Shown: positions 3,511 through 35,389 of the stretch, piece after piece
How positions within the stretch are numbered: the first letter of the stretch is position 1
How the letters are laid out: each line of letters opens with the position of its first letter
Source: Oscillospiraceae bacterium
GTDB taxonomy: Bacteria; Bacillota; Clostridia; Oscillospirales; Ruminococcaceae
Direction of reading: 5' to 3'
Assembly (NCBI GenBank): GCA_017828835.1
Contig: JAGAEK010000066.1
Location: 1-36,973, forward strand
DNA length: 36,973 nucleotides
The notes under the pieces: generated by a model
Database searches by the model: none
Told to the model about the DNA's origin: nothing
What the model saw: only the letters and a program-made list of their open reading frames with translations
Program-made: the position numbers and the translations under genes

Positions 3511-3729
3511 AATGCCTCCAAAAACCATAAAAAAATAAAAGAACATCTTTGGAGATGCTCTCAAATAGCATTTTGAATAGGGAGCCCTTATAAGTATATC
3601 ACGAATAAAATATAAAAGGCAAGAGTGAAATTTTAAAAAAATAAAAGTTGTTAAAATTAAAACCCTCGCGCAGAGGGAGTTTTATTGGACAGGAGATGTT
3701 GTAATATAAAAATAAAGGAGGCGGCGTAA

Positions 3730-13500: not shown

Positions 13501-16500
13501 AATCGCCGGTAACGCTGTTGTACTTCCAGAGCGGGAGCTCATAGTACGGGGTGTTGACTATTACGTAATCGCCGTTTTCAAGCGGGTATATCGTGTTGCC
13601 GTCTTCGTCGACGTAGCTGATCGTTATATCGCCGTTGGCGTCGCATATTACCGTGAATACGGTGTCAAGCGGGAAGTAGTTCGCGTTGGTCGAAGTCTCG
13701 ACCATCTCGTAGGTACCTCTTTCAAGGTTCCTTATGTGGACGACGCCGTCGCCGCCTGACGATACGGGCATGTTGATTTCCGTAGAATAGTACGACGTAC
13801 CGTAGATCAGGAACGAAACGTTGAGAAGAGGCGTCGTATAGCTCTGGCCGACCACTTTACCGACTTTATCGAAGTCGAGGTCGCCGTGTACGCGCTCTCT
13901 GTTGCTGAGTACCCACGTCGCCGTGCCTTCGTCGTAGCCTATGACGAGCGTGCCGTACGGTTCAAGCGTGTAGGCGTCGTCAACGAGCTCACCGAAGATG
14001 ACGTTGCCGTTCTGGTCTATCGTGACCGTTATAGGCGTGTGGTCTTCGACGTAGTCGTCAACACCGTCAAGCTCCTGCAGCGTGTAAACTCCGCGCGGGA
14101 TGCTGCCGAAGTTGATGATGCCGAGACTGTTCGTCGTGTACGTGTAGTCGATGTAGTCTCCGTAATGGGAATCGCCCCACAGACGGAATACGATGCCGGG
14201 GATCGGAACGATCTCGCCGGTGGTCTCGTATACGTCGTAGTCGATCTTCAGGATTTTGATCTCAGCCATCTGGCGGAATGATATCCTGGTGTAATCCTGA
14301 TGGTTCAGAGACGGATCGGCAAATTCGGAATCGTGTCCGAACTTGACGGAATTAAACAGGAATATATTATTATATGCGGTGGGATTGATCGCTTCGCTTT
14401 CGATAGCGTCCGGCGCCTTCATGTAGACTATCGCGGTGAGGGCGCTTGAAGGATCGAGCACAAAATTGTCTCCCGTTTTTGTTTTACGTATATCTATAGC
14501 AAAAGCGTGTGCGTTTACAAGATTGGGATCGTTGGGACCGGATGCCTTTATCCATGTCTCGGCATTAGCGGCGAAGTTGTAATCAGCCGTGACGCCGAGG
14601 TCCTTTATCTGGAGGTTCTCTTTCGTTGAGTAATACAGGACCGGGTCGATGCCGTTCGCTTCGAGCACGGTGAAATCGAAGCCCTGGAGTATGCCGTGCC
14701 AGTCGGACACCGTGTCGTCGACCAGTACGTAGTTTTCAAGGGAGTCGAAAAGGATCATGTCCTTGACCCAGGTCGCCGCATCCGTGGCAAAATGGATCTT
14801 ATAGGAATATTCGCCGCCGCTTATCGTCGTGGTGGCGTAAACGTAGTCCTCGTCCTTTTCGGCCATGACCTTCTTGTACAGACCGAGATTTCCGGCAGTG
14901 AGCGCGACTATGTTGTGGCTGCACTGGGTGTAGATGAATTTGTTGGCGTTGGTATCGGGATCAAGATCCGTCATAAGCAAACGGTCGGTTATGTGACCGG
15001 AACCGCTGGCGGGACCTCCGTTGTCGGGATAACCGTCGCCGATATCTTCGTTGCCCGTCTCATAAGCAACACTGTTGAGAACGTAGTTGCCGAACTCGGC
15101 TATCGAGTCCCAGGAATGGTTGGTAGCGTAGTTAAAGCTGTAAGAGGTCTTTGCAGGCTCATAGATACTGATAATGAGCAAAGTACGGCCGCTGCCGAGG
15201 TAGTTGGACTGAGTCTCTACCGAATACTGGTTCTGATTCAGTCTCTTGGAGTCGGAATATACTACAAGAGAAGATTTGTCAAACGTTCCGCCGTAAGGAA
15301 GCAGGTCGTAGAACATACCGCTCTGCTGTTCGACGTAGACGCGTTTGCCGCCCTCGCTGAGATAGCTCTCGTTCATCGAGATCGACCACGTCAAAACGCA
15401 GCGCTGATTCAGCGGATCGTTCTTGAAACGCACCGATTTCGTGATAGCGCTCTGTCTCGAGATGCCTATAACGTAATCGACGCCGGATTTAGAAGCAGTC
15501 TTAACAGGCGTTCCGGTATTGTCGGCACCCTTATAGACCGCGGTGCTCGCGGTGTTGACTACTGCAAATTCGTTTTGGTTTTCGGTATATGCTCTTTCTA
15601 CTACAGTATCAACTTTTTCGCAACGGAGCAGCGTCACGTACGGCTTAGCGCCGAGCGTGGTGCGGTAGTGCTTATTCGACGCGACAAGGCGGTAACCGGT
15701 GCAGGTGTGATCACCGAATATGATTGTCTTGCCGCTCGCGGTAACATTGTGGCTCGTTCCGGCTTCGGTGGGGGTAAACGCTGCCGTCGCCGTTGCAAGC
15801 GAACCGACCGCTACCCATTCGTCGGTACCGAACTGGGCATATATGGTTATGGCTTCATTGGGCTCGTAGGTCACGGCCTTTGTTTTGAAGCTCTGAGTTG
15901 TCTCATCAAAGTAAGCGTCGAGCATCGTGTACGATACTACAACCTTATCAAAACGGTATTCGCCGGCATTGAGCTTTACGCTGCTGGACTCGCCGATAAG
16001 TCTGACGCCGATCCTGTTGTCGGTGAGCTCTACCGTCGCCGGTACCAAAAAATAGTTGTTCGGGTCAGTGTTTGTAAGCCCTTCAGGTACCGTCAGCGCA
16101 TAAGTCGTCGCCGCAGACGAGGTGTACCATGCCAGATTAGTGATCTCGTTGACCGATCCGGTGTGGTAAGGATCCAGGTCGAAGCTGCGGATATCTTCTG
16201 AATCGTATACGCGTTTGTCGTTGTAATCGTAGCCGTATTTATCAAACGACATGCCTACGCCGCTGCCCGGATGGAATACGGGATGCTCATAAGCCCAGCG
16301 TTTCGTTGCGTCGGCGTTGGAATCGCGGTCGACTCCGTCCAGAGGATGAACGTTTCCGTACGCCTTGTTGGTGAAGGAGTACGTCGGCTGCTCATCGTAC
16401 GTAGCTTTCAGATGTCTCGTTATGACGTTGTCGTAACGGCCGTTCGGATAACTGGTGGTCTGGTTGTATACCTTACCGCAATTTGTGTCGGACGTGGGCC

Positions 16501-17482: not shown

Positions 17483-17873
17483 CCTTTGCACACCTTTCTT
17501 ACAATCTATATATCCCCACAAGAATATTATATGCGATCAAACAAAAATCAGGATTCAAAAAGCACAGATCTCATGGCCGAAGTAGACGAACTGCAAAGAC
17601 CCGCCTTTTAAATCCCGGTTGAAAATAATTGATATTCAAAAAGTATATTTTGTGCTTGCCGAAAGACGTTTCCGGAAAATAAATCGCGCACCGTAAAACC
17701 TCGGATAAGCGCTTATATGTCACTCCTTGCCGATCAAATCGGCGGAAGCCCCGGAACAACATAATGCGACTAAACCAGTTTATAATGTATCATAAGGTTT
17801 TTCCTTTGTCAATAGATAATTTTCAATTTGTACTACATAATTATGAACGATAGCTCAAGAATATGTACAAAAG

Positions 17874-20343: not shown

Positions 20344-22917
20344 TTATTTTATAAAAAGTCCGTTTTCCGAGCGATCCACGGTTATAGTGTCGCCGGGAGA
20401 AAGAGTTCCGGAAAGTATCGCCCGGGAAATAAGAGTTTCAACGTTCGACTGCAAAAACCGTTTGAGCGGACGCGCGCCGAAAGATATGTCAAATGCGTTG
20501 TCGATAATATATTCTTTGGCTTGCGGCGTGAGCTGCAAAGAAAGCTGTTTATCGGACAGCCGCTTCGATATCGACGCCAGCTGAAGATCGAGTATGCTTT
20601 CGATATTCTCTTTCGTGAGCGGCTTATAAAGTACGATCTCGTCAAGACGGTTCAAAAATTCGGGGCGGAAAGAACGTCTCAAAAGTGCGTTCACTCCGTC
20701 TTTTGCCTGATCGGAGATACTGCCGTCCGGGAGTATGCCGTCAAGAATAATATCCGAGCCGAGATTCGAGGTCAGGATCAGGATAGTGTTCTTGAAATCC
20801 ACCGTTCTGCCTTGACCGTCGGTGATCCTGCCGTCGTCGAGCACCTGGAGAAGCACGTTGAAAATATCCGGGTGGGCTTTTTCGATCTCGTCAAACAACA
20901 CGACAGAATAGGGTTTGCGGCGGACCGCTTCGGTGAGCTGTCCTCCCTCGTCGTAGCCGACGTATCCGGGAGGCGCTCCGATAAGGCGGGACACCGAGTA
21001 TTTTTCCATATATTCCGACATATCTATACGTATTATGGATTTTTCATTGTCAAACAACGCTTCCGCAACGGCTTTTGCAAGTTCCGTCTTTCCGACGCCG
21101 GTCGGACCGAGAAACAAAAACGATCCGATCGGGCGGTTCGGATCCTGTATGCCCGCACGGGAACGAAGGATCGCGTCGGAAACGCGCTTTACGGCGTCGT
21201 CCTGACCGATGACCCGCTTATGCAGGATCTGTTCAAGAGACAACAGCTTCTCACGTTCGCTTTCCATAAGCTTTGACACCGGTATGCCGGTCCACCTTGA
21301 AACGACTTTCGAGATCTCGTCTTCCGTGACGCAATTACGCAGCAGCGGATTTTCGTCGTTTTTGCTGTCTTTTTCGAGTTCCTCGAGCTTTTTTTGAAGT
21401 TTCGGAAGCTCGCCGTACCTCAATTCAGCGGCTTTTGCAAGGTCGTAGTCGTTCTGCGCTTTTTCGATCATCGCACCGGTCTGTTCTATTTCCTCTCTGA
21501 GCTTTTGGATCGTTCCGATACTTTGTTTTTCTTTTTCCCATTTTGCCTTCATCGAAGCAAAGCTCTCTCTTGCTTCGGATAACTCGCTCTGCAATTCTTT
21601 GAGCCGCGCTTCGGAAATTTTATCGTTTTCACGTTTCAATGCGGCCTCTTCTATTTCAAGCTGCATTATACGGCGTGATTTTTCGTCCATTTCGGTAGGC
21701 ATCGAGTTCATTTCCGTTTTTATAAGCGAACACGCTTCATCAACAAGGTCTATCGCTTTGTCGGGAAGGAAACGGTCCGAGATATATCTTTCAGAAAGCG
21801 TTGCCGCGGCGATCAAAGCGGCATCGTGTATTTTCACGCCGTGGAACACCTCGTATCTTTCGCGGATACCGCGCAAAATCGAAATCGTATCCTCGACGGA
21901 AGGCTCGGGAACCGGTACCGGCTGGAACCGGCGTTCGAGTGCGGCGTCTTTTTCGATGTATTTACTGTATTCGTTCAAGGTAGTCGCGCCGATACAGTGA
22001 AGTTCTCCGCGTGCAAGCATCGGTTTGAGAAGGTTTCCCGCGTCCATCGCACCGTCCGTTTTGCCCGCTCCGACTATAGTATGAAGCTCGTCTATGAAAA
22101 GAATTATATTGCCGTTCGAGTTTTTGACGTCCTCCAGAACGGCTTTAAGACGTTCTTCAAATTCTCCGCGGTATTTCGCTCCGGCGACGAGAGCGCCCAT
22201 ATCCAAAGAAAAAATGGTTTTGTTCTTGAGGTTTTCGGGTACGTCGCCTTTTACGATCCTTATAGCGAGACCTTCCGTGATAGCGGTCTTTCCGACGCCG
22301 GGCTCACCTATAAGGCAGGGGTTGTTTTTGGTTTTTCGGGAGAGTATGCGTATAACGCTTCTGATTTCGTTTTCTCTGCCGATAACGGGGTCGAGTTTTT
22401 GTTTTCTCGCGAGTTCAACCAAGTCCTGACCGTATTTTTTCAAAGCGTTGTAGCTGTCTTCTGGCGCGTCGCTGTTTACCGTTCTCGAACCTCTGATGTT
22501 TTTCAGCGCACACAAGACGGCGGTCTCGTTCACCCCGCACTCTTTGAATATCTTCGCTACCGTCGGATCGGCTTTTTTGATAAGCCCGAGAATGAGATGC
22601 TCGACCGAAACAAACGAGTCGTGCATTTGGTCCGCTTCGGCTTCCGCTCTGTCGAAAACCGCGGCAAGCTCACGTGAAACATAGGGCGATCCGCCGGAAA
22701 CCTTCGGCAGAGAATTCAATTTTTCTTCGGTTTTCCTTATTATTGACGAATAATCCGAAGACGCCGAAAAGATTTCGGGTGCAAGTCCGTCTTTTTGAGT
22801 TAACAGCGCATAAAGCAGGTGTATCTGTTCGATACACTGATTTCCGTATTCGTTTGCGATCTCCTGGCAGGAATTTACCGCTTCCGCGCTTTTTTTGGTA
22901 TATTTATCGAAGTTCAT
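20344..22917 (-). CDS. clpB: ATP-dependent chaperone/disaggregase ClpB
   Basis: The 857-aa protein has a Clp N-domain and two AAA+ modules (GEPGVGKTAI, GPTGVGKTELAK). A long coiled-coil middle domain separates them, and the signature LDPVIGRENEIRSVIRILSR is present. Confidence 0.95.
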   Translation of the reverse strand: MNFDKYTKKSAEAVNSCQEIANEYGNQCIEQIHLLYALLTQKDGLAPEIFSASSDYSSIIRKTEEKLNSLPKVSGGSPYVSRELAAVFDRAEAEADQMHDSFVSVEHLILGLIKKADPTVAKIFKECGVNETAVLCALKNIRGSRTVNSDAPEDSYNALKKYGQDLVELARKQKLDPVIGRENEIRSVIRILSRKTKNNPCLIGEPGVGKTAITEGLAIRIVKGDVPENLKNKTIFSLDMGALVAGAKYRGEFEERLKAVLEDVKNSNGNIILFIDELHTIVGAGKTDGAMDAGNLLKPMLARGELHCIGATTLNEYSKYIEKDAALERRFQPVPVPEPSVEDTISILRGIRERYEVFHGVKIHDAALIAAATLSERYISDRFLPDKAIDLVDEACSLIKTEMNSMPTEMDEKSRRIMQLEIEEAALKRENDKISEARLKELQSELSEARESFASMKAKWEKEKQSIGTIQKLREEIEQTGAMIEKAQNDYDLAKAAELRYGELPKLQKKLEELEKDSKNDENPLLRNCVTEDEISKVVSRWTGIPVSKLMESEREKLLSLEQILHKRVIGQDDAVKRVSDAILRSRAGIQDPNRPIGSFLFLGPTGVGKTELAKAVAEALFDNEKSIIRIDMSEYMEKYSVSRLIGAPPGYVGYDEGGQLTEAVRRKPYSVVLFDEIEKAHPDIFNVLLQVLDDGRITDGQGRTVDFKNTILILTSNLGSDIILDGILPDGSISDQAKDGVNALLRRSFRPEFLNRLDEIVLYKPLTKENIESILDLQLASISKRLSDKQLSLQLTPQAKEYIIDNAFDISFGARPLKRFLQSNVETLISRAILSGTLSPGDTITVDRSENGLFIK

Positions 22918-23992: not shown

Positions 23993-24820
23993 TTATTTTG
24001 AATTTTTCGGAAGAACGGAATTTTTGTAAGCGGACGGAGTGATACCCTCGAGCTTTTTGAAAAGTTTTGAAAAATAATAAACGTCGTTTATTCCGACCGA
24101 ATACGCTGCCGATTTCAGCGGCTCTCCGTTTGCGATAAGCGTTTTCGCTTTCTCAATCCTCTGTTTGAGGATATACTTTTCCGGGGATATGCCGAATTTG
24201 TCTTTGAACAATCTGTAGACGCGGCTTCTGTCGACACCGAGATACTCAGAAATCTCAGACACCGATATCCCTTCAGCGCAGTGAAAATCGATAAACGCAA
24301 CGGCACCGTCTATTTGACGGTTGAATTTTTTGCCGCCGCCGTTTCCGGCGGACTCTTCGATCGCGCTGAAACACTCCATAACGCATCCCTCGAAATACGC
24401 CGCCGTGGGATTTTCTTTTTTGTCAACACAGCGCTCGAGTATTTCTTTTATCTTGTTTTCAAATATATTGTTATTTACGGTCACTTTCAGGTCGTCTTTA
24501 TCTATGCCGGCTTTTTCGAGGTGCTTTTCGACGAAATCCCCCGTGAAACATATCCAGCAAAAAGTCCAGGGGTCGTCCGGATCGGAATAGTAAAGTGCGG
24601 CGTCTCTCGGAAGGATAATAAACGCGTCGTTTGCCGAAAGAGAATACTTTTTCCCTCTGACCTCGTAATATCCCCTCCCGTTCAAAACCTTGTGTATTAT
24701 ATACGGGTACCTTGCGTAAGGCCCGCAAGAAAAGTTTTTATCACAGTTCAAATACCCGCAGCCGCAAAACCGCCAGTTCGAGTCCTCGTCGAAATGACTT
24801 GCCCAATATTCTTTCCTCAT
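23993..24820 (-). CDS. AraC-family transcriptional regulator (cupin-like sensor domain plus HTH)
   Basis: The C-terminal double HTH (ISVSEISEYLGVDRSRVYRLFKDKFGISPEKYILKQRIEKAKTLI....L..AAYSVGINDVYYFSKLFKK..GITPSAY) is typical of AraC/XylS. The N-terminus resembles an AraC-type ligand-binding cupin. I prefer the ATG at 24820 (TTGAGGT 6 nt upstream) over the ATG at 24838. Confidence 0.88.
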   Translation of the reverse strand: MRKEYWASHFDEDSNWRFCGCGYLNCDKNFSCGPYARYPYIIHKVLNGRGYYEVRGKKYSLSANDAFIILPRDAALYYSDPDDPWTFCWICFTGDFVEKHLEKAGIDKDDLKVTVNNNIFENKIKEILERCVDKKENPTAAYFEGCVMECFSAIEESAGNGGGKKFNRQIDGAVAFIDFHCAEGISVSEISEYLGVDRSRVYRLFKDKFGISPEKYILKQRIEKAKTLIANGEPLKSAAYSVGINDVYYFSKLFKKLEGITPSAYKNSVLPKNSK

Positions 24821-24909
24821 AATGAACCTCAACTCCATTCCCTGCTGTCAATATAACAAATATCATGGTAAAAGTCAACAATAATACAAAACAAATCATC
24901 AATTCGCCA

Positions 24910-24938
24910 TTGAGAGATGCCGATAAAATCAGTATTAT
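24910..24938 (+). promoter_or_regulatory. Candidate sigma-A promoter of the glycyl-radical-enzyme operon
   Basis: TTGAGA (24910-24915), a 17-nt spacer and TATTAT (24933-24938), in the 145-bp divergent region shared with the AraC gene. Confidence 0.4.
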
Positions 24939-24965
24939 TGTAATAGAAGAAGATTATTATACGGG

Positions 24966-26951
24966 GTGATAACGACGTTAAACAATATATCGCAACAATT
25001 TTACAATGTCGGAGAAATCTTTGCGGGAGCGATGTTCGAAAATGAAGACCTCCCGATCTTCGACCGTATGTCTCACGCTTATGCGGAATACTGGAGCCGC
25101 AAGGTGCTTCCCGCTTACAACGGCGGGAAATTATACCCCTGCGGTCCGCTGGGAGAACCCGATTACGCAGTAACTCCGAGCGCGTCATACGTATATACCG
25201 TTGACAAAGAACGCCTGGACAAAAAAGATCCTGCGCTTTTCGGGTATCTTATAGACGAGTTCGCCGGTTCGTCCTGCGGATATACGATCCACTCAGTCGC
25301 CGGGTTCGGTTTCACTCATTCGCTGCCCCACTACGGAAGGATCGCAAAAGAGGGCTTTGATTCTTATTATGAAAGGATACAAAGAAAAAACGGCGAACTG
25401 AAAAACGGACTTTCGGAATTATTAGACGGAATCAGGAAATTCCGCGGACGCTGTATCGATAAGCTGATAAAAGAAAACGCGGATGAAGAGCTTATAGCGG
25501 CTCTTAAAAAGGTTCCGTTCAGACCGGCGGAAAACATATACGAAGCAATAGTATGCATGAATTTCATTTATTACCTTGATTGCTGCGACAACGTCGGACG
25601 TCTGGATACGGACCTGCTTCCTTTCTGGAAAGGCGAGGATATCGTCGGGCTTTTGGAGGAATTTTTCAAAAACGTCGATGAAACCGAAGGTTATTCGTCG
25701 TCGATCGGTCCGGACTACAATCCTCTGACGCTGCAATGTCTTAAAGCGATAAAAGGCAAAAGGCGTCCGCAGATAGAATTGAGGATCCGTCCAGATATGC
25801 CGAAAGAACTTTGGGACGCGGCGATAGCGTCTCTTGCCGAGGGTTGCTCCAACCCGTCTTTGTATAACGATCCGTTATACGAGCAATCGTTCAAAAAAAG
25901 ATTTCCCGATCTGCCCCATGAGGATTTTCTGCGGTTTTGCGGCGTCGGATGTACCGAAAGTACGCTTGCGGGCCTTACGAACGCAGGTTCTCTTGACGCC
26001 GGTATACACACTCCTGAGATTTTTTCGGTATATATGCGGGAAAATCTCGGAAAATGCAGCTCGTTCGAGGAATTTTACAACGGCTTCATCGCAAAATACA
26101 AATCCGAGCTTGAGGACGTTGTTGACCGTCTGCGCGAATATCACACCCTCAGAGCAAAATGCAGGCCGCACCCGATGAGAACGCTCGTTGTCGACGACTG
26201 TATCGATAAAGACAAGGATTTCAACAACGGCGGCGCGAGATACTCCTGGAGCGTTATAAACTTTGCGGGACTCGTGAACGTTTTTGAAGATATGCTCGCG
26301 GTCAAAGAGCTTATATTTGACAAAAAACTGTTTTCGGCGGAAAGATTCATCAAAGGTCTCGACGACGAGGACCCCGAAATATTCAACGCTTGCAAACGCT
26401 GCAAGCATTACGGAGTCGACGACGACGAAGCGGATTCGCTCGCCGCAAGGATACTCGGAGATCTTTTGGATGAACTTGACAAACACAGGACCTGCTTCGG
26501 CGGACAATTCCTGCCCGCGTCGATCCAATTCAACACCTGCGTCTGGGCGGGTAGAACCGTTCTTGCGACGCCGGACGGAAGAAAACGCGGTACCTCTCTT
26601 GCGGATTCTCTCTCTGCAATACACGGAAACGACACCGACGGTATAACCGCGATGCTCAACAGCGTTGCAAAACTGCCGCTTTGGAGAATGACCGGGACGC
26701 CCGTGCTGAACGTAAGACTTGAAAAGACGTTCATGAAAAACAACCTTCCTGCGATAGTGAGCGGATTTTTCGCAAACGGCGGTATGCAGATGCAGATAAC
26801 CTGCCTCAACCGCGAAGATATGCTCGACGCGCAGGAGCATCCCGAAAACCACGGCAATCTCGTGGTAAAGGTCGGCGGATATTCGGATTATTTCGTGCGT
26901 CTGCCGAGAGACCTTCAAAATCAAATCATTTCAAGGACTGAATTTGTATGA
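24966..26951 (+). CDS. Glycyl-radical enzyme (PFL-like superfamily), unusually short, substrate unknown
   Basis: The C-terminal glycyl-radical fingerprint VVKVGGYSDYFVRLPRDLQNQIISRTEF matches (R)V.G(Y)x6Lx4Qx2Ix2R. The radical Gly codon is at 26877-26879. The catalytic Cys loop FCGVGCTES has Cys at 25950-25952 and Glu at 25956-25958. The motifs ATPDGRKRGTSLADS and NNGGARYSW are GRE-typical. The start is uncertain: GTG at 24966 has no SD, and ATG at 25032 lies only 2 nt after GGGAG. An in-frame stop upstream caps the length at 661 aa. Confidence 0.9.
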   Translation: MITTLNNISQQFYNVGEIFAGAMFENEDLPIFDRMSHAYAEYWSRKVLPAYNGGKLYPCGPLGEPDYAVTPSASYVYTVDKERLDKKDPALFGYLIDEFAGSSCGYTIHSVAGFGFTHSLPHYGRIAKEGFDSYYERIQRKNGELKNGLSELLDGIRKFRGRCIDKLIKENADEELIAALKKVPFRPAENIYEAIVCMNFIYYLDCCDNVGRLDTDLLPFWKGEDIVGLLEEFFKNVDETEGYSSSIGPDYNPLTLQCLKAIKGKRRPQIELRIRPDMPKELWDAAIASLAEGCSNPSLYNDPLYEQSFKKRFPDLPHEDFLRFCGVGCTESTLAGLTNAGSLDAGIHTPEIFSVYMRENLGKCSSFEEFYNGFIAKYKSELEDVVDRLREYHTLRAKCRPHPMRTLVVDDCIDKDKDFNNGGARYSWSVINFAGLVNVFEDMLAVKELIFDKKLFSAERFIKGLDDEDPEIFNACKRCKHYGVDDDEADSLAARILGDLLDELDKHRTCFGGQFLPASIQFNTCVWAGRTVLATPDGRKRGTSLADSLSAIHGNDTDGITAMLNSVAKLPLWRMTGTPVLNVRLEKTFMKNNLPAIVSGFFANGGMQMQITCLNREDMLDAQEHPENHGNLVVKVGGYSDYFVRLPRDLQNQIISRTEFV

Positions 26952-27835
26952 TGATTTTCGATATAAAACGCGCGTCGGCATCCGACGGACCGGGACTGAG
27001 ATCTGTCGTCTTCTTCAAAGGGTGTCCGCTGCGCTGCGCCTGGTGCCACAATCCGGAATCGTATTCCGCATCGCCTCAGCTGTCTTACGCAGAAGAAAAG
27101 TGCGTTTCCTGCGGAAAATGTTCTCAAATTTGCGAACACGGCTGCCACGAGATCAAAAACGGAGCACATATTTATTCGTCCGAAAAATGTGTTCTTTGCG
27201 GAAAATGCGCAGAAGAGTGCCCGACGAAAGCGCTGAAACTCTACGGAGAAGAAATTTCGGTCGATCGGGTGTTTTCAAAACTTCTGCGGGACAAAGCGTA
27301 TTACGTTTTCGGCGGAGGCGTTACCTTTTCGGGCGGAGAGCCGATGTCGCAGTTTGAAGAAGCTCTCGAGCTGGCGAAAAAGCTTTATGAAGCCGGCGTT
27401 TCGGTATGTATGGAGAGCTGCGGCTACGGAAATACGGAGGATTTTCTTGAGATCGCAAAATATATCGACTTCTTTCTGTTCGACGTCAAATGCGTGAAAG
27501 AGCTCCATAAACGCTGCACCGGAGTTGAAAACGACCTGATAATCAAAAATCTCCACGCATTGAGCGATGCCGGAGCGAAAATAATATTGCGCTGCCCGAT
27601 AATCCCCGGCGTCAACGATAATAAGGAACACCTCGAATATCTCGCGTCGCTTTCAAAATTGAGCGGAGTCAAAGAAATAAACCTTGAGCCGTATCATCCG
27701 ATCGGAATATCAAAGAGAAAAATACTCGGTATGCCGGTCGAATACGGCAACCCCGAGTTTGCAGACAAAACCGAGATCGAAAACCTAAAGAAACAATTAT
27801 CCGTACTTACGGATAAAGATATAAAAATTATTTAA
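26948..27835 (+). CDS. Glycyl-radical-enzyme activating protein (radical SAM, with two auxiliary ferredoxin-like clusters)
   Basis: The N-terminus DGPGLRSVVFFKGCPLRCAWCHNPE carries the CX3CX2C radical-SAM motif. It is followed by CVSCGKCSQICEHGC and CVLCGKCAEECP (two 4Fe-4S ferredoxin motifs) and the SAM-binding GGVTFSGGEP. The start overlaps the GRE stop (ATGA). Confidence 0.93.
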   Translation: MMIFDIKRASASDGPGLRSVVFFKGCPLRCAWCHNPESYSASPQLSYAEEKCVSCGKCSQICEHGCHEIKNGAHIYSSEKCVLCGKCAEECPTKALKLYGEEISVDRVFSKLLRDKAYYVFGGGVTFSGGEPMSQFEEALELAKKLYEAGVSVCMESCGYGNTEDFLEIAKYIDFFLFDVKCVKELHKRCTGVENDLIIKNLHALSDAGAKIILRCPIIPGVNDNKEHLEYLASLSKLSGVKEINLEPYHPIGISKRKILGMPVEYGNPEFADKTEIENLKKQLSVLTDKDIKII

Positions 27836-27854
27836 TAAAAAGGAGATGTTTGGT

Positions 27855-29189
27855 ATGTTAAAAAAGGTATTCGCAGCAGCGCTTGCGGTACTGATGGTGA
27901 TCCTCTGCTTTGCCGCTTGCGGCAAGGGCGGCGAATCGTCGAACCCTCAGGAATCGTCAAAACAGGAAAGCAACTATCCTTCGGGATTCGCTTTTGACGA
28001 AACAAGTTTTAAAGGCAAAAAACTTCAGTGGTGGAATCACTGGGACACCGTTGACACAAAGGGTCATATCGCCGAGTTTGAAAACGCAACCGGTACAAAG
28101 ATCGAATACAGCACTCTTTCCGGCGGCGGCGGAACGGAATACGCCGCACAGCTCAGCTCTGCAATAACCGCAGGAACGGGACCCGATATCGCCGTCGTTT
28201 ACGACTGGGCCGTCCCCAGCTGGACTAAAAAAGGATTGCTTGTACCTCTCGACGAAGTCATGAACCTTTCCGACGAAATATATAAAGATAAAATAAGCGA
28301 TGCAATGCTCAATTTCTTCGCATATAACGGCAAATCTTACGTGATTGCGACAAACGAGGTTTCTTGTTATTATCTTATCTACCGCAAAGATCTGATCGAA
28401 GAGGCAGGCCTTGACGATCCTTATGAGTTATGGAAAAATAAAGAATGGAACTATACGAAGTTCAATGAATATCTTGCCGCTCTGACTTATGACAGCGACG
28501 ACGACGGCGTTATCGATATGTTCGGTCTCACCGGATATACCGACGAGGGATGGCTCGGAACGGTCGAAAACGGCAACTACGTCAGATGGACCGAGGATGG
28601 TACCCCGAAATTTGCTCTCACCGATCCAGATCTTATCGCGGCGCTGACCGAAGCTCACGTCGTCGGAACAAACGGCTGGATAAGAAACGATGTTTTGCCG
28701 CTCGACGAGTTCCTCAGCGGAAAATTCGCGTTTTTGTTCAGCGCTCAGTGGGATTGGGAGAAAGCGATCGATACTTTCGGAATCGAAAAAATCGGATTTG
28801 TCCAGATGCCTTATGCGGAAGGGGTCAATGAATCAAAGGTAGTTTTGAACAGGACCAACGCATCGGGGTATGCGTTTACCCAAAATATCGACGAACCGGG
28901 ACTTGCCGAACATTATATAAAATACGCGATGTTCTGGGACAGAGCGGACCGCAACCTCGACGCTAAGCCGGAAAACTCGCCTACATTCGGCGGAAGCCGT
29001 GAGTTTTATGAATTCCACAGGCAGATGCAAAAACTCACGTTCGCTCCAAACGCCGGATCTTTCGGAGTTTTGTATAACGTAATAGCGTCTAAGATACTTT
29101 GGAACTATACCGACACTGTAGCAAATCTTGTTCAGAGCGCTCAGCCGGCAGCGCAAGCTTTGATCGACGAGGTGTTCTACGAAGACTGA
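27855..29189 (+). CDS. Extracellular solute-binding lipoprotein (carbohydrate-type ABC substrate-binding protein family)
   Basis: The signal peptide MLKKVFAAALAVLMVILCFAAC carries a lipobox and is followed by an S/E/Q-rich linker. The size (about 445 aa) and motifs (GPDIAVVYDWAVPSWTKKGLLVPLDE, YNGKSYVIA) are typical of family-1 sugar-binding proteins. The ATG at 27855 is 9 nt after GGAG. Confidence 0.88.
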   Translation: MLKKVFAAALAVLMVILCFAACGKGGESSNPQESSKQESNYPSGFAFDETSFKGKKLQWWNHWDTVDTKGHIAEFENATGTKIEYSTLSGGGGTEYAAQLSSAITAGTGPDIAVVYDWAVPSWTKKGLLVPLDEVMNLSDEIYKDKISDAMLNFFAYNGKSYVIATNEVSCYYLIYRKDLIEEAGLDDPYELWKNKEWNYTKFNEYLAALTYDSDDDGVIDMFGLTGYTDEGWLGTVENGNYVRWTEDGTPKFALTDPDLIAALTEAHVVGTNGWIRNDVLPLDEFLSGKFAFLFSAQWDWEKAIDTFGIEKIGFVQMPYAEGVNESKVVLNRTNASGYAFTQNIDEPGLAEHYIKYAMFWDRADRNLDAKPENSPTFGGSREFYEFHRQMQKLTFAPNAGSFGVLYNVIASKILWNYTDTVANLVQSAQPAAQALIDEVFYED

Positions 29190-29214: not shown

Positions 29215-31746
29215 ATGAAAATTTTCAAAAAGGTGATCGCGGTAGTTTCGGCGGCGGCAATATTGGCGGCGTTTTCTGCCTGCAATACTTCAAATCCGTC
29301 TGAAAGTGAACCGCCTTCATCGGTATCGTCTAAATCTGGAGGGTTCGGTTCGACGAGCAAACCCAGCAGACCGGAATCCAGCGCGATCGAACTCACGGTA
29401 TCCGATATTTTCAAAAACGAAGTAATCGCTTACGAACAGAAGATCGGTGAGGCAAAAACCGGCGTTATGGATTTTTCCTGGCTCAACGACGTTCCCGCCG
29501 GTACTCACGGATTCGTTACGGTGAAAGACGGCGACTTCTGTTTTGAAGACGGTACCTCGGTAAAATTCTGGGGAGTAAATTTGGGATTCGGCGCGGCGGC
29601 TCCCGAAAAGGAGACCGCCGAGGCAATATCCGAAGAGCTTTACCGTTTGGGCGTGAATATGGTAAGACTCCACGCGCTCGACGCGGGTCTCGTTGATTAT
29701 TCCGAAAACACGACCCAGCTGTTTGATGAGAAATTTTTCGACCGGATGGACTATTTCATCTGGCTGCTGAAACAGCGCGGTATATATATACACCTCGATC
29801 TTATGTGCGGTAAAGGCTATCTTCCCGGCGACGGATTCACCGCAGAGGAAATGGATTATTTCATAAAATCCGCCGGCGGCGCGAACGATAAGACCGGACT
29901 TGTCAAAGAAACAAGACTTTTCAACGACAGATGTATCGAGCTTGACAAAAAATATATCGAAGGGATCCTGACTCATTTCAATCCGTATACCGAAATGAGA
30001 TATTGCGACGATCCTGTCTTCGCCGTGGTCCAATACGTGAACGAGACGAGCATCTTTTGGACTCAGCAGATGATATCGACTCCGTTCGAGGGAGAACTGA
30101 ACGAAAAGTATAACGAATGGTTATGCGAAAAATACGGCGACCGTGCAGCTCTTGAGCTTGCATGGACGGACGAAAAAGGTGTTTGTATTCTTAACGCCGA
30201 CGAAGACCCCGAAGCCGGAACGGTAGTCGGAGAAGGATTGGGGTGCTGGGGCGAAAGACTTGTCGGATGGAACAGCAAGCTGTCGACCCGTCTTGCGGAT
30301 TATAAAGAGTTTTTATACGATACCGAAGCAAAAACCTTTACCGAAATGTATGAATTTATGAGAGCTCTCGGGCTGAAATGTCCGATCAACCTCTCGAACT
30401 ATCCTCTCGGTCCCGCGGACAGAAAGGTCAACTCTCTCGGAGACGTTACTGAGAAAAACGCCTATTGGGGCGATAATGACGTCAGTATGACCGAGGCGGA
30501 ACCTTCTTCCGAATATCCGAGAAACACCCTGGTCGATCTTTCCTGCGGTTGTGTGGCGGATAAACCGTTCGTCATCACCGAATGGAACTGTTTGTCGACG
30601 GTGGAATTCAAAGCCGACGGGTTGTTCCAAACGGCGGCGTACGCGGCGCTCCAGGATTGGGACGGATTTTTGCTCTTCACCTGGACCTTCCAGTCCGGAG
30701 CAACGTATTTTTATTCCGACGCAATGACGGATCTTTACAGCGCAAACATGGATCCGTCGACGATCGGTCAATTCGGAATGTGCGCGGCGCTTTTCAGGTT
30801 GGGACTTGTGAGCGAGGCAAAAAATTCGGTCGAATGCGTATATACCGAAACCGACGTATTCACACAACCGTCAAATTATATGGCTTATCAGTATTCCGTT
30901 CCGTTCATATCAAAGTTTTCATATAGGTTCATAGATGAAAAATACGACGGAAACGCCGATTTTGTAATAACTTCGGGAAATTCGGCTTCCGGAGATTATT
31001 CGTCGGCTAAAAAGCTGCTGCTCCATTCAATGAATCCTTATTCGGATATTTCAAAGCAAAACAACGCGAGAGAAACTTGGCTTAAGAAATATATCGAAAA
31101 TAACGCCGAAATCAAAAAACTCGGCGGCGCGGAATTTGCGGTAGGAGAAAACCGCGTCGTATGTGTCGCACCTGAAGGCGCTTACTATTTCGGAGGCTCG
31201 TCCGTTACTTCCGTGGTCGACGCGTCAATGAAACAGCTCGGCATCATCGGTAACGACGAAGGCTTTGTCGACGGAAAAATAATTTCCGATACAAAAGAGA
31301 TCGTTTTCGATTATAAAAATAACGGATTTTTTATAAATACCGACAAAATCGATGTTTTTGCCGGCGTTACGAACGGCTCGGCGGCGTCCGGAAGCTTTTC
31401 TTTGAAAACAACGAACGATAAAGCGGCGATCGCCGTGATCGCGCTTGACGGAGATAAGATCGAGACATCAAATTCGGTCTTTGTCTATGCGATGGGAAGA
31501 TGCGCAAATAACGCCCGCAATATCATCGGCGGAGACGGTTCGCTGCAAGGCGTCGGACGCGCTCCGATATTATATGAGGATATCCGCGGAACGCTCACGG
31601 TAAGCTCCGAAAAATCTTCCGCTGTCGCTTACGCTTTGTCCTCTTCCGGAAAACGAGTCAATGAAATTCCGGTAGCGGAAATTTCAGGCGGATTTACTTT
31701 GACTCTCGCGGGAAGCTGTTTTTATGAAATAGTTTTCGCGGACTGA
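29215..31746 (+). CDS. Large lipoprotein with a clan GH-A (GH5-like) glycoside-hydrolase-type TIM-barrel region; specificity unknown
   Basis: The signal peptide plus lipobox (AILAAFSAC) is followed by a Ser/Pro-rich linker. The stretch HGFVTVKDGDFCFEDGTSVKFWGVNLGF...LGVNMVRLHALD resembles the start of GH5/GH2-type barrels. The candidate acid/base is VNE (Glu at 30043-30045) and the candidate nucleophile is ITEWN (Glu at 30580-30582). I could not assign the C-terminal roughly 380 aa. Confidence 0.6.
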   Translation: MKIFKKVIAVVSAAAILAAFSACNTSNPSESEPPSSVSSKSGGFGSTSKPSRPESSAIELTVSDIFKNEVIAYEQKIGEAKTGVMDFSWLNDVPAGTHGFVTVKDGDFCFEDGTSVKFWGVNLGFGAAAPEKETAEAISEELYRLGVNMVRLHALDAGLVDYSENTTQLFDEKFFDRMDYFIWLLKQRGIYIHLDLMCGKGYLPGDGFTAEEMDYFIKSAGGANDKTGLVKETRLFNDRCIELDKKYIEGILTHFNPYTEMRYCDDPVFAVVQYVNETSIFWTQQMISTPFEGELNEKYNEWLCEKYGDRAALELAWTDEKGVCILNADEDPEAGTVVGEGLGCWGERLVGWNSKLSTRLADYKEFLYDTEAKTFTEMYEFMRALGLKCPINLSNYPLGPADRKVNSLGDVTEKNAYWGDNDVSMTEAEPSSEYPRNTLVDLSCGCVADKPFVITEWNCLSTVEFKADGLFQTAAYAALQDWDGFLLFTWTFQSGATYFYSDAMTDLYSANMDPSTIGQFGMCAALFRLGLVSEAKNSVECVYTETDVFTQPSNYMAYQYSVPFISKFSYRFIDEKYDGNADFVITSGNSASGDYSSAKKLLLHSMNPYSDISKQNNARETWLKKYIENNAEIKKLGGAEFAVGENRVVCVAPEGAYYFGGSSVTSVVDASMKQLGIIGNDEGFVDGKIISDTKEIVFDYKNNGFFINTDKIDVFAGVTNGSAASGSFSLKTTNDKAAIAVIALDGDKIETSNSVFVYAMGRCANNARNIIGGDGSLQGVGRAPILYEDIRGTLTVSSEKSSAVAYALSSSGKRVNEIPVAEISGGFTLTLAGSCFYEIVFAD

Positions 31747-32031: not shown

Positions 32032-34428
32032 TTATGCCGCGGAATTCGGTTTCAGCGAAGCTCCGTTTTTATTTTTGCGTACGACCATATATACCATGAA
32101 AATGAAAATTATTACAGCAAAAGCCAGAGATATCGGATTTGCCGCCCCTTTGAACATCATTCCGAACTGGTATACTATCAGTGACACGGCATAGGCAAAG
32201 GCGCACTGATAACCGATCGCAAACCAAGTCCATTTTGCGCTGTTCATTTCTCTGCTGATGGCGCTGATCGCACCGACGCACGGAGCGCAAAGCAGATTGA
32301 AGATCAAAAACGAGTAAGCTGACAGCGCCGTCATACCTTCAAAATCGAGCACACCGAAAACTCCGACGATCTCTTCTTTTGCAAGTATCCCCATAAGCGT
32401 TGCGATAGACGCTTTCGCACTTCCGAATCCGAGCGGGTTGAATAACACCTTCAACGCTCCGCCGATCACTCCGAGAATACTCGATTCAAGCGGTATATCA
32501 AGCGCAAACACAAGCTTTCCTTCGACGACACCGACAGAAGAACCGATCCAAACGAAGATCGACGCAAGAAGTATGATCGTTCCTGCTTTTTTGATAAACG
32601 CCCATCCTCTTTCCCACATACTGCGTAAAATATTTATCGGCGTCGGCATGTGGTATGCGGGGAGTTCCATGACGAACGGCGAAGGTTCTCCGGAAAACAT
32701 CTTCGTCTTTTTAAGAATGAATCCCGACGTTACGATCGCAAAAATACCTATCAGGTAAGCGCTCGGCGCTACCCACCACGCGCCTCCGAAAATCGCGGAA
32801 GATATCATTGCGATCACAGGCAGCTTTGCACCGCACGGAATAAAAGTAGTTGTTATGATCGTCATACGTCTGTCATTTTGATTTTCAATGGTCCTCGACG
32901 ACATTATTCCGGTAGCACCGCATCCCGTTCCGACAAGTATGGGGATGAACGATTTTCCGGAGAGCCCGAATTTGCGGAAAATTTTGTCCATAACGAACGC
33001 GATACGTGACATATATCCGCAGCCCTCGAGAAACGCGAGGAAGATGAAAAGCGCAAACATCTGCGGCAGGAAGCTGAGTACCGAGCCGACTCCCGCCACG
33101 ATACCGTCAAGAATAAGCCCGTTGAGCCAAAGCGGCGTATTCAAACGCTCAAGCGAATCACCTATAACTTTCGGGAGTCCCGGGATCCAGACCCCGAAAT
33201 CCGATTCGTCGGGTATTATCTTATACCAATCTTCGAGTATACCCGAGATATCGGCACCCTTTTCGGCAAACGCATCGCCGTAAACGTCGACGGCTTTGAT
33301 AAACGAAGAATAATCCTTCGCATCCATCGCTTTTATCGCAAGCTCAGCGCCGATAGCATCGTTTTGCTTTGCGGTTTCGAGTTTTTCGCGCATTTCTTCC
33401 GTCCAAAGATATTGTTCGGCAGATTCGGTAACTGCGGCGCTGTAAGACGACGCTCCTATTCCGAATAAATGCCAGCCGTCCCCGAAAAGGCCGTTTTTTG
33501 CCCAGGTGTCCGACCAGCTACCGACAAGAGCGATGGAAATGTAATACGTCAAAAACATGATCACGGCAAAAATCGGCAGTGCCGCCCACTTGTTTGTGAA
33601 AATCCGGTCGATTTTATCCGATGCTGTCAGCCGCCCGGAATGTTTCTTTTTATAAACTCCGTTAAGGATGTTGGATATGTAATTATATCTTTCGTTTGTG
33701 ATGATACTTTCTGCGTCGTCATCCATGATTGCTTCCGTCGTACGGATATCTTCTTCGATATGGTTCAAAGTACTTTCGCTGAGATCAAGCAAATTCAGTA
33801 CGTTTTTATCTCTTTCGAATATTTTTATAGCGTACCAGCGCTGTTTTTCCGGCGCCATACTGTGAACGGCTGCCTCTTCGATATGAGCTATCGCGTGTTC
33901 GACCTCTCCTGAAAATATATGCAGAGGAACGGAATATTTTTTTGCCGCGGCTTCGATCGCGGCGTCCGCCGCTTCAATTATACCTTCATTTTTCAACGCC
34001 GAAATCTCAACGATCTTACATCCGAGTTTTTTTGAAAGTTCTTCAATATTTATTTTGTCGCCGTTTTTTCTGACGATATCCATCATATTTATCGCAACGA
34101 CGACCGGCGCACCGGTTTCCATAAGCTGAGTGGTGAGATAAAGATTCCGTTCTATATTCGTTCCGTCGACGATATTGAGTATCGCGTCGGGATGTTCTTT
34201 GATCAGATAATCGCGGGCAACGACCTCGTCGGTAGTATAAGGCGAAAGCGAATATATGCCCGGAAGATCCGTAAACGTTACGCCGTCCCGGTTCTTCATC
34301 TTGCCTTCTTTTTTCTCCACCGTGACGCCGGGCCAGTTTCCTACGTATTGATTCGAACCGGTCAAGGCGTTGAAAAGCGTTGTTTTTCCGCAATTCGGAT
34401 TGCCCGCAAGGGCTATTCTTATATCCAT
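32032..34428 (-). CDS. feoB: Ferrous iron transporter FeoB
   Basis: The N-terminal G-domain IALAGNPNCGKTTLFNALTG...VGNWPGVTVEKKEG...DLPGIYSL is followed by a polytopic permease domain. GGAGGC lies upstream of the ATG. Confidence 0.95.
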   Translation of the reverse strand: MDIRIALAGNPNCGKTTLFNALTGSNQYVGNWPGVTVEKKEGKMKNRDGVTFTDLPGIYSLSPYTTDEVVARDYLIKEHPDAILNIVDGTNIERNLYLTTQLMETGAPVVVAINMMDIVRKNGDKINIEELSKKLGCKIVEISALKNEGIIEAADAAIEAAAKKYSVPLHIFSGEVEHAIAHIEEAAVHSMAPEKQRWYAIKIFERDKNVLNLLDLSESTLNHIEEDIRTTEAIMDDDAESIITNERYNYISNILNGVYKKKHSGRLTASDKIDRIFTNKWAALPIFAVIMFLTYYISIALVGSWSDTWAKNGLFGDGWHLFGIGASSYSAAVTESAEQYLWTEEMREKLETAKQNDAIGAELAIKAMDAKDYSSFIKAVDVYGDAFAEKGADISGILEDWYKIIPDESDFGVWIPGLPKVIGDSLERLNTPLWLNGLILDGIVAGVGSVLSFLPQMFALFIFLAFLEGCGYMSRIAFVMDKIFRKFGLSGKSFIPILVGTGCGATGIMSSRTIENQNDRRMTIITTTFIPCGAKLPVIAMISSAIFGGAWWVAPSAYLIGIFAIVTSGFILKKTKMFSGEPSPFVMELPAYHMPTPINILRSMWERGWAFIKKAGTIILLASIFVWIGSSVGVVEGKLVFALDIPLESSILGVIGGALKVLFNPLGFGSAKASIATLMGILAKEEIVGVFGVLDFEGMTALSAYSFLIFNLLCAPCVGAISAISREMNSAKWTWFAIGYQCAFAYAVSLIVYQFGMMFKGAANPISLAFAVIIFIFMVYMVVRKNKNGASLKPNSAA

Positions 34429-34936: not shown

Positions 34937-35389
34937 TTACGAATACATTCCGTTTACGTTCATATAATCGTAAATAAGCTTTCCGTGCTGTTGTTCTTCT
35001 TTCTGGATATGATTCAGAAAGTTTCTCAAATTCTGATCCTTGAATTCAAAAACGCAGGTATCATATAGATTAGACGCGTATTTTTCGGAAGCGAGAGCAT
35101 CGGAACAGAGAAAACAATCCTCGGATTTCTCCGGTGTGTTCACATTAGTGTATTTTGCGTTGAACGTTTGAGCGGATTGGGAAGAACTTGAGGTTTGAGG
35201 AACGGTACCTGAAGAGATCTGATCAAGAGACTCAAGGTGTCCCTGCTCGGTCTGGGCGAGCTGAGAAAAAAGGTTTTTAAGCTGGACGTCTTTGGCGCAG
35301 GAGGAATGTTTCAGATATTTTTCCGTACATAATTTCTCCTGATTTTTAAGTTCGTTGAGTAATTCGGTTTCTTTTTGAGTAAACTGCAT
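34937..35389 (-). CDS. Spore coat protein, CotF-family-like (two Coat_F-type helical repeats)
   Basis: There are two halves with the Coat_F pattern: ...ELLNELKNQEKLCTEKYLKHS...LKNLFSQLAQTEQGHLESL and ...LCSDALASEKYASNLYDTCVFEFKDQNLRNFLNHIQKEEQQHGKLIYDYMNVNGMY. A Ser/Thr/Gln-rich linker separates them. Confidence 0.7.
   Translation of the reverse strand: MQFTQKETELLNELKNQEKLCTEKYLKHSSCAKDVQLKNLFSQLAQTEQGHLESLDQISSGTVPQTSSSSQSAQTFNAKYTNVNTPEKSEDCFLCSDALASEKYASNLYDTCVFEFKDQNLRNFLNHIQKEEQQHGKLIYDYMNVNGMYS

Follow-up and report, generated by a model that had tools for sequence, protein, structure and literature searches.

A compact branch of predicted glycyl radical enzymes from uncultured gut Clostridia

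Contig JAGAEK010000066.1 of an Oscillospiraceae bacterium (assembly GCA_017828835.1) was analysed over its whole length of 36,973 nucleotides, hereafter the window. It encodes a glycyl radical enzyme (GRE) that is about 15-20% smaller than any characterised relative, with the gene of a GRE-activating enzyme immediately downstream and an AraC-family regulator transcribed divergently upstream; these and the other features discussed below are listed in Table 1. An earlier inspection of the letters and open reading frames (the sequence-only reading) had described the catalytic core of the GRE as apparently intact, and the cysteine loop, the glycyl radical fingerprint and both expected domains are indeed present, the PFL-like domain (PF02901, 151.1 bits against a cutoff of 24.3) and the Gly_radical domain (PF01228, 71.3 bits against 22.2) passing the curated Pfam thresholds. 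The ATG of the activase overlaps the GRE stop codon by four nucleotides (ATGA), and the protein carries a CX3CX2C motif (CPLRCAWC, 27023..27046) and two ferredoxin-like Cx2Cx2Cx3C motifs (within 27101..27220), with eight or more auxiliary cysteines in all, which together with its TIGR02494 score bear out the earlier description of an activase with two auxiliary clusters and an overlapping start. It is predicted to be the cognate three-cluster activase, translationally coupled to the GRE, and the locus is predicted from its sequence to be a working two-gene radical enzyme system.

Table 1. Coordinates of the features of the window, with the strand and the basis of each assignment.
Feature	Position	Strand	Basis
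Housekeeping: DUF1846 protein	2023..3564	-	
3326-aa open reading frame: seven Cna_B repeats, SpaA, DUF285, DUF7601, DUF5979, BspA-type leucine-rich repeats	7541..17521	-	
Housekeeping: ClpB	20344..22917	-	equivalog cutoff exceeded (1314 bits)
AraC-family regulator (cupin ligand-binding domain and HTH_18)	23993..24838	-	Pfam AraC_binding, HTH_18, HTH_AraC
Divergent control region, 127 bp	24839..24965	.	promoter-like sites by consensus match
Sigma-70-like site TTGACT-17-TATATT with TG	24878..24850	-	consensus match only
Sigma-70-like site TTGAGA-17-TATTAT	24910..24938	+	consensus match only
In-frame stop of the GRE frame	24924..24926	+	13 codons 5' of GTG 24966
Compact GRE, 661 aa, 74.6 kDa	24966..26951	+	translation of the open reading frame, Pfam, family alignment, AlphaFold2 model
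His118, family-invariant	25317..25319	+	hhalign: aligned with YbiW His165 (profile-profile)
Cys329-Thr330-Glu331, Cys loop (predicted thiyl radical site and CXE glutamate)	25950..25958	+	invariant in 75 sequences; aligns with YbiW Cys441/Glu443
Glycyl radical fingerprint KVGGYSDYFVRLPRDLQNQIISR; Gly638 at 26877..26879, predicted radical site	26868..26936	+	sequence, alignment
GRE-activating radical SAM enzyme, 295 aa	26948..27835	+	TIGR02494, 303.5 bits against a cutoff of 174.35
Solute-binding lipoprotein SBP_bac_1/8, sugar-type, 10 bp past the activase gene	27846..29189	+	Pfam
843-aa lipoprotein, 25 bp past the solute-binding protein gene	29215..31746	+	lipoprotein signal; Cellulase (GH5, clan GH-A) E 7.9e-4, sub-threshold
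Housekeeping: FeoB	32032..34428	-	
Housekeeping: CotF-like spore coat protein	34937..35389	-	

The GRE reading frame cannot exceed 661 residues because no ATG, GTG or TTG lies between the upstream in-frame stop and position 24966 (translation of 24900..26951), as the sequence-only reading had maintained. The GTG at 24966 is taken as the start because the next ATG of the frame, at 25032, lies downstream of the family-invariant Glu17. The closest relative (L001, hereafter the twin; 97% protein identity) starts at an ATG that aligns with codon 4 of the window gene, where the window has ACG, so the window GRE must begin at the upstream GTG. The start codon has shifted between these near relatives (24966..24977 in the window against 10001.. 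in L001), the GTG of the window lying three codons upstream. The gap to the AraC gene, previously given as 145 bp, has that length if the regulator begins at the start that yields 275 aa, as called in the twin locus, but measures 127 bp with the 281-aa start.

The typical size of a GRE is 80-100 kDa, and no PFL-like GRE of ~660 aa appears in a 2026 review of the superfamily (PMC13450708). The PFL-like chains matched in the Protein Data Bank (PDB) are full-size, most of 759-897 aa, apart from GrcA (127 aa) and two chains of formate acetyltransferase (687 and 739 aa) whose match is confined to residues 477-572. The contrast in size with characterised GREs that had been drawn from the sequence is therefore real, and the description of the enzyme as unusually short is right in respect of these, but not in respect of the uncharacterised relatives of 700-750 aa into which its family grades.

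From 5.8 billion proteins 566 homologues were retrieved, and the best 120 are not canonical enzymes of about 800 aa of which the window gene would be a 5'-truncated copy: they are 616-702 aa long (median 657.5), cover 93-100% of the query and, the 97% twin excepted, are 44-60% identical to it, so that the compact family proposed by the sequence-only reading exists. In an alignment of 75 sequences, 70 columns are invariant, among them G326, C329, T330, E331, H118, the TPDGR and DDCI motifs, and G638; both radical residues are thus retained throughout. The twin gene is 93.4% identical in DNA and was assembled identically from two independent samples; its codons differ from those of the window gene by 100 synonymous and 21 non-synonymous changes, which implies strong purifying selection, and the GRE gene is by this comparison judged to be intact and under such selection. 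The homologues are named "hypothetical protein", "pyruvate formate lyase family protein" or "formate C-acetyltransferase" in the databases, and no description of a ~660-aa GRE family was found in the literature.

When the family profile was run with HMMER against 1.84 billion cluster representatives, 7787 matches were obtained, of which 2039 fell below 1e-30. They form a continuum from a core of 655-680 aa scoring above 700 bits, through many relatives of 680-750 aa at 450-700 bits with a G-G-C-T-E-[TL] loop, to farther groups with the Cys loops G-C-[NS]-Q or T-C-[VT]-E. The window GRE is at the short end of this large and wholly uncharacterised radiation. Many of the relatives of 700-750 aa (P0196-P0260) have glutamine in place of the CXE glutamate (G-C-N-Q or G-C-S-Q) and others have T-C-[VT]-E; both kinds seem to represent additional GRE clades, also uncharacterised, whose acid/base equipment is changed.

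Relatives are encoded in 467 stretches of a species-representative genome collection. The best 80 of these all come from metagenome-assembled genomes, most of them of Oscillospiraceae, Christensenellales and unclassified Clostridia from ruminant, chicken or poultry and human guts and from digesters, and a few of Treponema, Lentisphaerae and Kiritimatiellia. Members at 42-49% identity were seen in non-Firmicute metagenome-assembled genomes (L025 and L035 of Treponema, L057 of Lentisphaerae, L060 of Kiritimatiellia, and L074 of a Nitrospirales bin), which suggests horizontal transfer or binning errors. Some genomes have two GRE paralogues of the short family, in tandem or divergent, each with its own AraC gene, and others a short GRE together with one of ~790-800 aa (loci L043, L052 and L061; L008 and L058); the pairing suggests paralogue expansion, and L008 also has a second activase.

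The Cys loop FCGVGCTESTLAG reads F-C-G-V-G-C329-T-E331-S. Cys329 aligns with Cys441 of YbiW and Cys433 of glycerol dehydratase (GD), and the Cys-x-Glu arrangement noted beforehand in the string GVGCTES is present and invariant. The CXE motif of the GRE 1,2-eliminases and isomerases is defined in PMC13450708, according to which the glutamate binds a substrate hydroxyl in all eliminases and isomerases; the decarboxylase HPAD has the motif too (Cys503/Glu505). The sequence-only reading, which took Cys-x-Glu as common to eliminases and foreign to PFL, was right that the eliminases have it and that there is no Cys-Cys pair here; the arrangement is not exclusive to eliminases, as isomerases and HPAD share it. 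CXE is therefore necessary but not sufficient for elimination.

The C-terminus VVKVGGYSDYFVRLPRDLQNQIISR contains V-V-K635-V-G-G638-Y and continues to the final arginine of the fingerprint. The published GRE fingerprint is RVxG[FWY]x6-8[FL]x4Qx2[IV]x2R (PMC13450708); the window protein has V-G-G638-Y followed by x6-L-x4-Q-x2-I-x2-R, the radical glycine preceding an aromatic residue, and matches at every fixed position except the first, where arginine is replaced by lysine (Lys635, AAG, 26868..26870), just as had been remarked from the sequence. The lysine does not mark the family: among the best 120 homologues the position is arginine in 117 and lysine in two, namely the window protein and its 97% twin, one being not scorable. 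A sequencing error was considered and rejected, since the same lysine stands in the gene of 93.4% DNA identity that was assembled from two independent samples. Lys635 is by this comparison a peculiarity of one lineage under purifying selection and not a family trait; it is a conservative, selected substitution that is not taken to exclude membership of the GREs. Gly638 is invariant in the 75 sequences, and membership of the aminoacyl radical enzymes (AAREs), a class in which the radical glycine is replaced by Ala, Ser or Thr (PMC13450708), was rejected accordingly.

An AlphaFold2 model built from the family alignment has a pLDDT of 93.9 and a pTM of 0.92, and is confident from residue 4 onwards. 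Foldseek matched it to GREs only within the PDB, with template modelling (TM) scores of 0.81-0.88, normalised to the query, for 50 GRE chains. The top match is the B12-independent GD (1r8w; E 9e-38, ~20% identity), with a TM score of 0.88 when normalised to the query and 0.75 when normalised to the target, which means that nearly the whole of the short protein is matched, leaving a quarter of the canonical enzyme unmatched; propanediol dehydratase (PD), PflD, HpzG, CutC, HypD and YbiW follow, all of 764-837 residues. On this model the enzyme is predicted to adopt the GRE fold, a ten-stranded beta/alpha barrel in whose centre the finger loops of the Cys and the Gly meet.

The missing residues were mapped by global profile-profile alignment of the family with a profile of canonical eliminases led by E. 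coli YbiW (810 aa), an alignment that reproduces the published catalytic numbering by placing Cys329/Glu331 opposite Cys441/Glu443. Compared with YbiW, the window GRE lacks 50 residues before the barrel (window residues 1-113), 67 in the first half-barrel (residues 114-322; blocks of 13, 10, 6, 10, 16, 10 and 2) and 34 in the second (residues 351-600; blocks of 17, 5, 1, 6 and 5), and one each in the Cys loop (residues 323-350) and the glycyl radical domain (residues 601-661). In total it has ~150 residues fewer, ~100 of them lost in about a dozen internal loop deletions. The earlier phrase "N-terminally minimised" accounts for one third of the loss, the 50 residues before the barrel, and not for the remainder, which is spread over internal loops. 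On this alignment the enzyme is best described as a GRE trimmed across its periphery, in surface loops and the pre-barrel region, that keeps both catalytic loops, those of the Cys and the Gly, and its glycyl radical domain untouched. The helices before the barrel form the conserved GRE dimer interface (PMC13450708).

Membership of a characterised GRE family was rejected on NCBIfam cutoffs and PDB profile scores. Every GRE equivalog model in NCBIfam falls 5-10 fold under its cutoff: HypD (NF043068) 173 bits against 1100, the PFL-like PRK09983 167 against 1109, HpfG 150 against 1000, HpsG 135 against 1000, IAD 134 against 1100, CutC 128 against 1050, HPAD 105 against 1150, and PFL (TIGR01255) 75 against 994. 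The PFL2/glycerol dehydratase model TIGR01774 gives 219.4 bits against a cutoff of 678.2, over residues 252-659 only. Against the PDB, the family profile scores ~200-231 bits with PflD, HypD, GD, PD and YbiW, in each case over residues 249-657 only, so that no characterised GRE is matched over the full length, the best score being 231 bits. Judged by these scores, the nearest known relatives are eliminases and isomerases, and they are roughly equidistant.

The invariant His118 lies opposite His165 of YbiW; its equivalence to GD His164 and HypD His160 goes through the YbiW residue and rests on residue numbering, not superposition. GD His164 is proposed to protonate the leaving hydroxyl (PMC13450708), and in HypD either of the changes H160Q and E436Q gives an inactive enzyme (PMC7077986). 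Elsewhere the pocket departs from known ones. The strand segment at the site of GD His281/Ser282 and HypD Asp278 reads L-D205-[G/C]-C207-D208-N-V-G-R after a six-residue deletion, the placement of Asp205, Cys207 and Asp208 relative to those residues being ambiguous by sequence-profile mapping, and Ile520 stands at the position of GD Tyr640 in a pairwise alignment. Distinct in these two places, the pocket favours a substrate outside those so far assigned to GREs.

The reading somewhat favoured here, by analogy with characterised GREs, is that the enzyme is an AraC-controlled, C-O-cleaving eliminase or isomerase that employs Cys329, Glu331 and His118 and acts on a substrate that is probably sugar-derived. 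Under anoxia, the activase would cleave S-adenosylmethionine and take the C-alpha hydrogen of Gly638, and the glycyl radical would pass to Cys329 as a thiyl radical. The thiyl radical would take a hydrogen from the carbon bearing the hydroxyl or from the one next to it, while Glu331 would hydrogen-bond to the substrate hydroxyl and deprotonate it; Glu331 and His118 would then relay protons to expel the vicinal oxygen leaving group, and the product radical would regain its hydrogen from Cys329. Such a cycle would amount to either dehydration or ring-opening isomerisation, as in GD and PD, HypD and YbiW/PflD. More speculatively, the substrate may be a small molecule to which the AraC regulator responds, with dietary or plant glycans as its probable origin, and may differ from the substrates of characterised GREs. 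If Asp216 of CutC occupies, as residue numbering suggests, the position of His118, the His-Glu pair would favour C-O cleavage over choline-type C-N chemistry.

The neighbourhood of the family was surveyed in 78 non-redundant loci, in which open reading frames were called and clustered, and neighbours within three genes on either side as well as tight same-strand partners were scanned against Pfam. An AraC-family gene occurs in 34 loci and adjoins the GRE in 28, in most cases upstream on the opposite strand; an activase gene occurs in 22 loci, adjacent in 19. Clustering yielded no other recurrent neighbour beside these two. Within three genes, the Pfam counts are led by components of ATP-binding cassette (ABC) exporters (7) and EamA/sugar-transport families (6), followed by sugar-type solute-binding proteins, MFS_2 and GH28 (3 each) and by GH43, GH127, GH32, GH67, DUF4838, BNR_2 and PF12831 FAD oxidoreductases (2 each), and a short-chain dehydrogenase cluster recurs in five loci. 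The tight same-strand partners include xylose-isomerase-like TIM barrels, solute-binding proteins and GH28 (3 each), GH2, GH67, DUF4838 and GDSL esterases (2 each), and permeases. None of the recurrent neighbours listed from the 78 loci belongs to a bacterial microcompartment (BMC) shell, aldehyde or alcohol dehydrogenase, aldolase or phosphotransferase system (PTS) family, and no BMC domain was found in any scanned open reading frame of the window.

In the window itself, the activase gene is followed closely by those of a solute-binding lipoprotein and an 843-aa lipoprotein, for which no PDB relative was found. ABC permease and ATPase genes do not adjoin this pair, which is read as an orphan binding protein plus a possible surface glycosidase. 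The two genes have the same order in the twin loci and are not conserved across the family, and are lineage-specific operon partners.

Several observations weigh against an eliminase or isomerase of sugar-derived substrates. Only 22 of the 78 loci have an activase nearby, and none of the enzymes that would mark a pathway (aldolase, aldehyde or alcohol dehydrogenase, kinase) is conserved downstream in these loci. The carbohydrate flavour of the neighbourhood is consistent with the proposed substrate but weak, because the families are scattered, each being found in at most 3-6 of the 78 loci, counts that carry no background comparison, and because these Clostridia are rich in carbohydrate genes anyway; scattered as the genes are, no pathway can be named. 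Lys635 departs from the literal fingerprint. CXE narrows the chemistry without fixing it, given its occurrence in HPAD. The pocket cannot be mapped onto a known GRE pocket because the segment at GD His281/Ser282 and HypD Asp278 differs, and the steps of the mechanism would hold only as far as the analogy from which they are drawn.

If the chemistry is of another kind, the enzyme might decarboxylate an acid, arylacetate-like or not, with Glu331 serving as the corresponding glutamate does in HPAD. Such an assignment could draw on the CXE loop of HPAD, on a family pocket unlike every known one and on the lack of conserved eliminase-type downstream enzymes, and it is nevertheless unlikely: the family profile scores only 142-153 bits with the decarboxylases and BSS (7e7l 153, HPAD 146, BSS 142) as against 200-231 bits with the eliminases and isomerases, there is no small-subunit gene between or beside the GRE and activase genes, and His118 would correspond to the histidine of the dehydratases and isomerases.

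The likelihood is slightly lower again that the enzyme is simply a compact version of a known one, whether a GRE dehydratase of glycerol or 1,2-propanediol or an anhydro-sugar-phosphate isomerase of the YbiW/PflD type. GD, PD and PflD do supply the best sequence and structure matches, and the Cys and Glu positions are common to the two sides, as would be that of the His. An isofunctional enzyme would hardly be expected, however, at ~20% identity, with TIGR01774 at 219 bits against 678, the equivalogs 5-10 fold below their cutoffs, and a profile that lies about equally far (~200-231 bits) from PflD, HypD, GD, PD and YbiW; the segment of GD His281/Ser282 is replaced, and the recurrent neighbours listed in the survey of 78 loci include no shell, aldehyde or alcohol dehydrogenase, PTS or aldolase family.

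A pyruvate or 2-ketoacid formate-lyase, as some of the JGI and NCBI homologue names and the name of the PFL-like Pfam domain would have it, is very improbable, because the loop has a single cysteine followed by Thr-Glu where the formate-lyases PFL and TdcE have an adjacent Cys-Cys pair, TIGR01255 stays at 75 bits against a cutoff of 994, and PFL is the most distant PDB match (105 bits, over the C-terminal 180 residues only). That the gene is a 5'-truncated or decaying GRE pseudogene, with the lysine as a sign of decay, is effectively refuted: it is shorter than characterised GREs, has the R-to-K change in its fingerprint and has a GTG start with a weak ribosome-binding site, but its length is that of the whole family (median 657.5 aa in the best 120, coverage 93-100%), synonymous changes outnumber non-synonymous ones by 100 to 21, the twin has the lysine in two independent assemblies, the catalytic residues are all intact, the model is confident from residue 4, and the deletions are distributed instead of forming a single truncation.

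The window GRE thus belongs to a compact, conserved and widespread branch of the GREs with standard catalytic logic, from uncultured gut Clostridia, and a C-O-cleaving eliminase or isomerase is the function that the analogy points to. The further proposal, that the branch transforms a substrate outside those of characterised GREs, most plausibly a free sugar or sugar derivative that comes from glycans and is sensed by the paired AraC regulator, on a naturally minimised scaffold whose trimmed helices before the barrel may alter or remove the canonical dimer, falls a little short of an even chance. If true, uncultured gut Clostridia would be the source of a further GRE function, and the smallest full catalytic PFL-like GRE would serve as an engineering chassis. 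Nothing established is overturned, the catalytic logic being standard; what the family offers is the smallest full PFL-like catalytic scaffold among those compared here, and an indication that ~150 residues of a canonical GRE are dispensable with the catalytic loops kept, which is of value in working out what the N-terminal dimer helices do and in designing smaller radical biocatalysts. The anaerobic reactions of GREs bear on host-microbe chemistry, and the divergent AraC regulator is a built-in handle for substrate discovery. Many uncharacterised GRE clades are known. Whole clades await experimental validation (2026 review, PMC13450708).

The remaining features of the window have little to do with the GRE. 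The 3326-aa open reading frame looks like a giant Gram-positive surface adhesin. The genes for the DUF1846 protein, FeoB, the CotF-like protein and ClpB are the background of a spore-forming Firmicute, and none of them is linked to the GRE in other loci.

Among known systems, GD of C. butyricum (1R8W/1R9D) and PD (5I2G, 9RCO) provide the closest structure (TM 0.88) and the best single-sequence PDB match (2.6e-45). They have in common with the window GRE the CXE loop, TPDGR, DDCI, the glycyl radical domain and the three-cluster type of activase. The window GRE differs from them in being only ~20% identical and 125-180 residues shorter, in aligning by sequence only over residues 249-661, and in the deletion or replacement of the GD segment that holds His281/Ser282. 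Diol pathways are expected to include a microcompartment shell and aldehyde and alcohol dehydrogenases, families absent from the list of recurrent neighbours in the 78 loci.

YbiW and PflD (8ID7, 8ID0, 8YJO), which catalyse the ring-opening of 1,5-anhydroglucitol/mannitol-6-phosphate, are alike in other respects: PflD (8id0) is the top profile match at 231 bits, Cys441, Glu443 and His165 of YbiW lie opposite Cys329, Glu331 and His118, the setting is sugar-related, and the Cys loop is GC-[TI]-E-T. The window GRE has 24% identity to them in the profile alignment and is 149 residues shorter than YbiW, 50 of these before the barrel. E. coli ybiW adjoins fsaA, encoding an aldolase, and ybiV, encoding a sugar phosphatase, whereas the neighbour list of the 78 loci has no recurrent aldolase, sugar-phosphatase or PTS family.

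HypD (6VXC) scores 230 bits with the family profile and shares the Glu and, by residue numbering, the His, and the best equivalog of the activase is the HypD activase (292 bits against a cutoff of 425). Asp278 is essential in HypD (PMC7077986); the invariant Asp208 lies opposite it in a non-significant local alignment that hhalign does not confirm. Membership of the YjjI family was rejected, since TIGR04040 gives 26.2 bits against a cutoff of 498.3, the activase scores 155 bits against a cutoff of 250 with the YjjW model, and the YjjI-like Pfam match is weak (33 bits, residues 187-313). E. coli YjjI (PF11230, 485 positions; TIGR04040, 497) nevertheless offers a parallel to the window GRE, in that it likewise represents a PFL-like GRE family below the canonical size.

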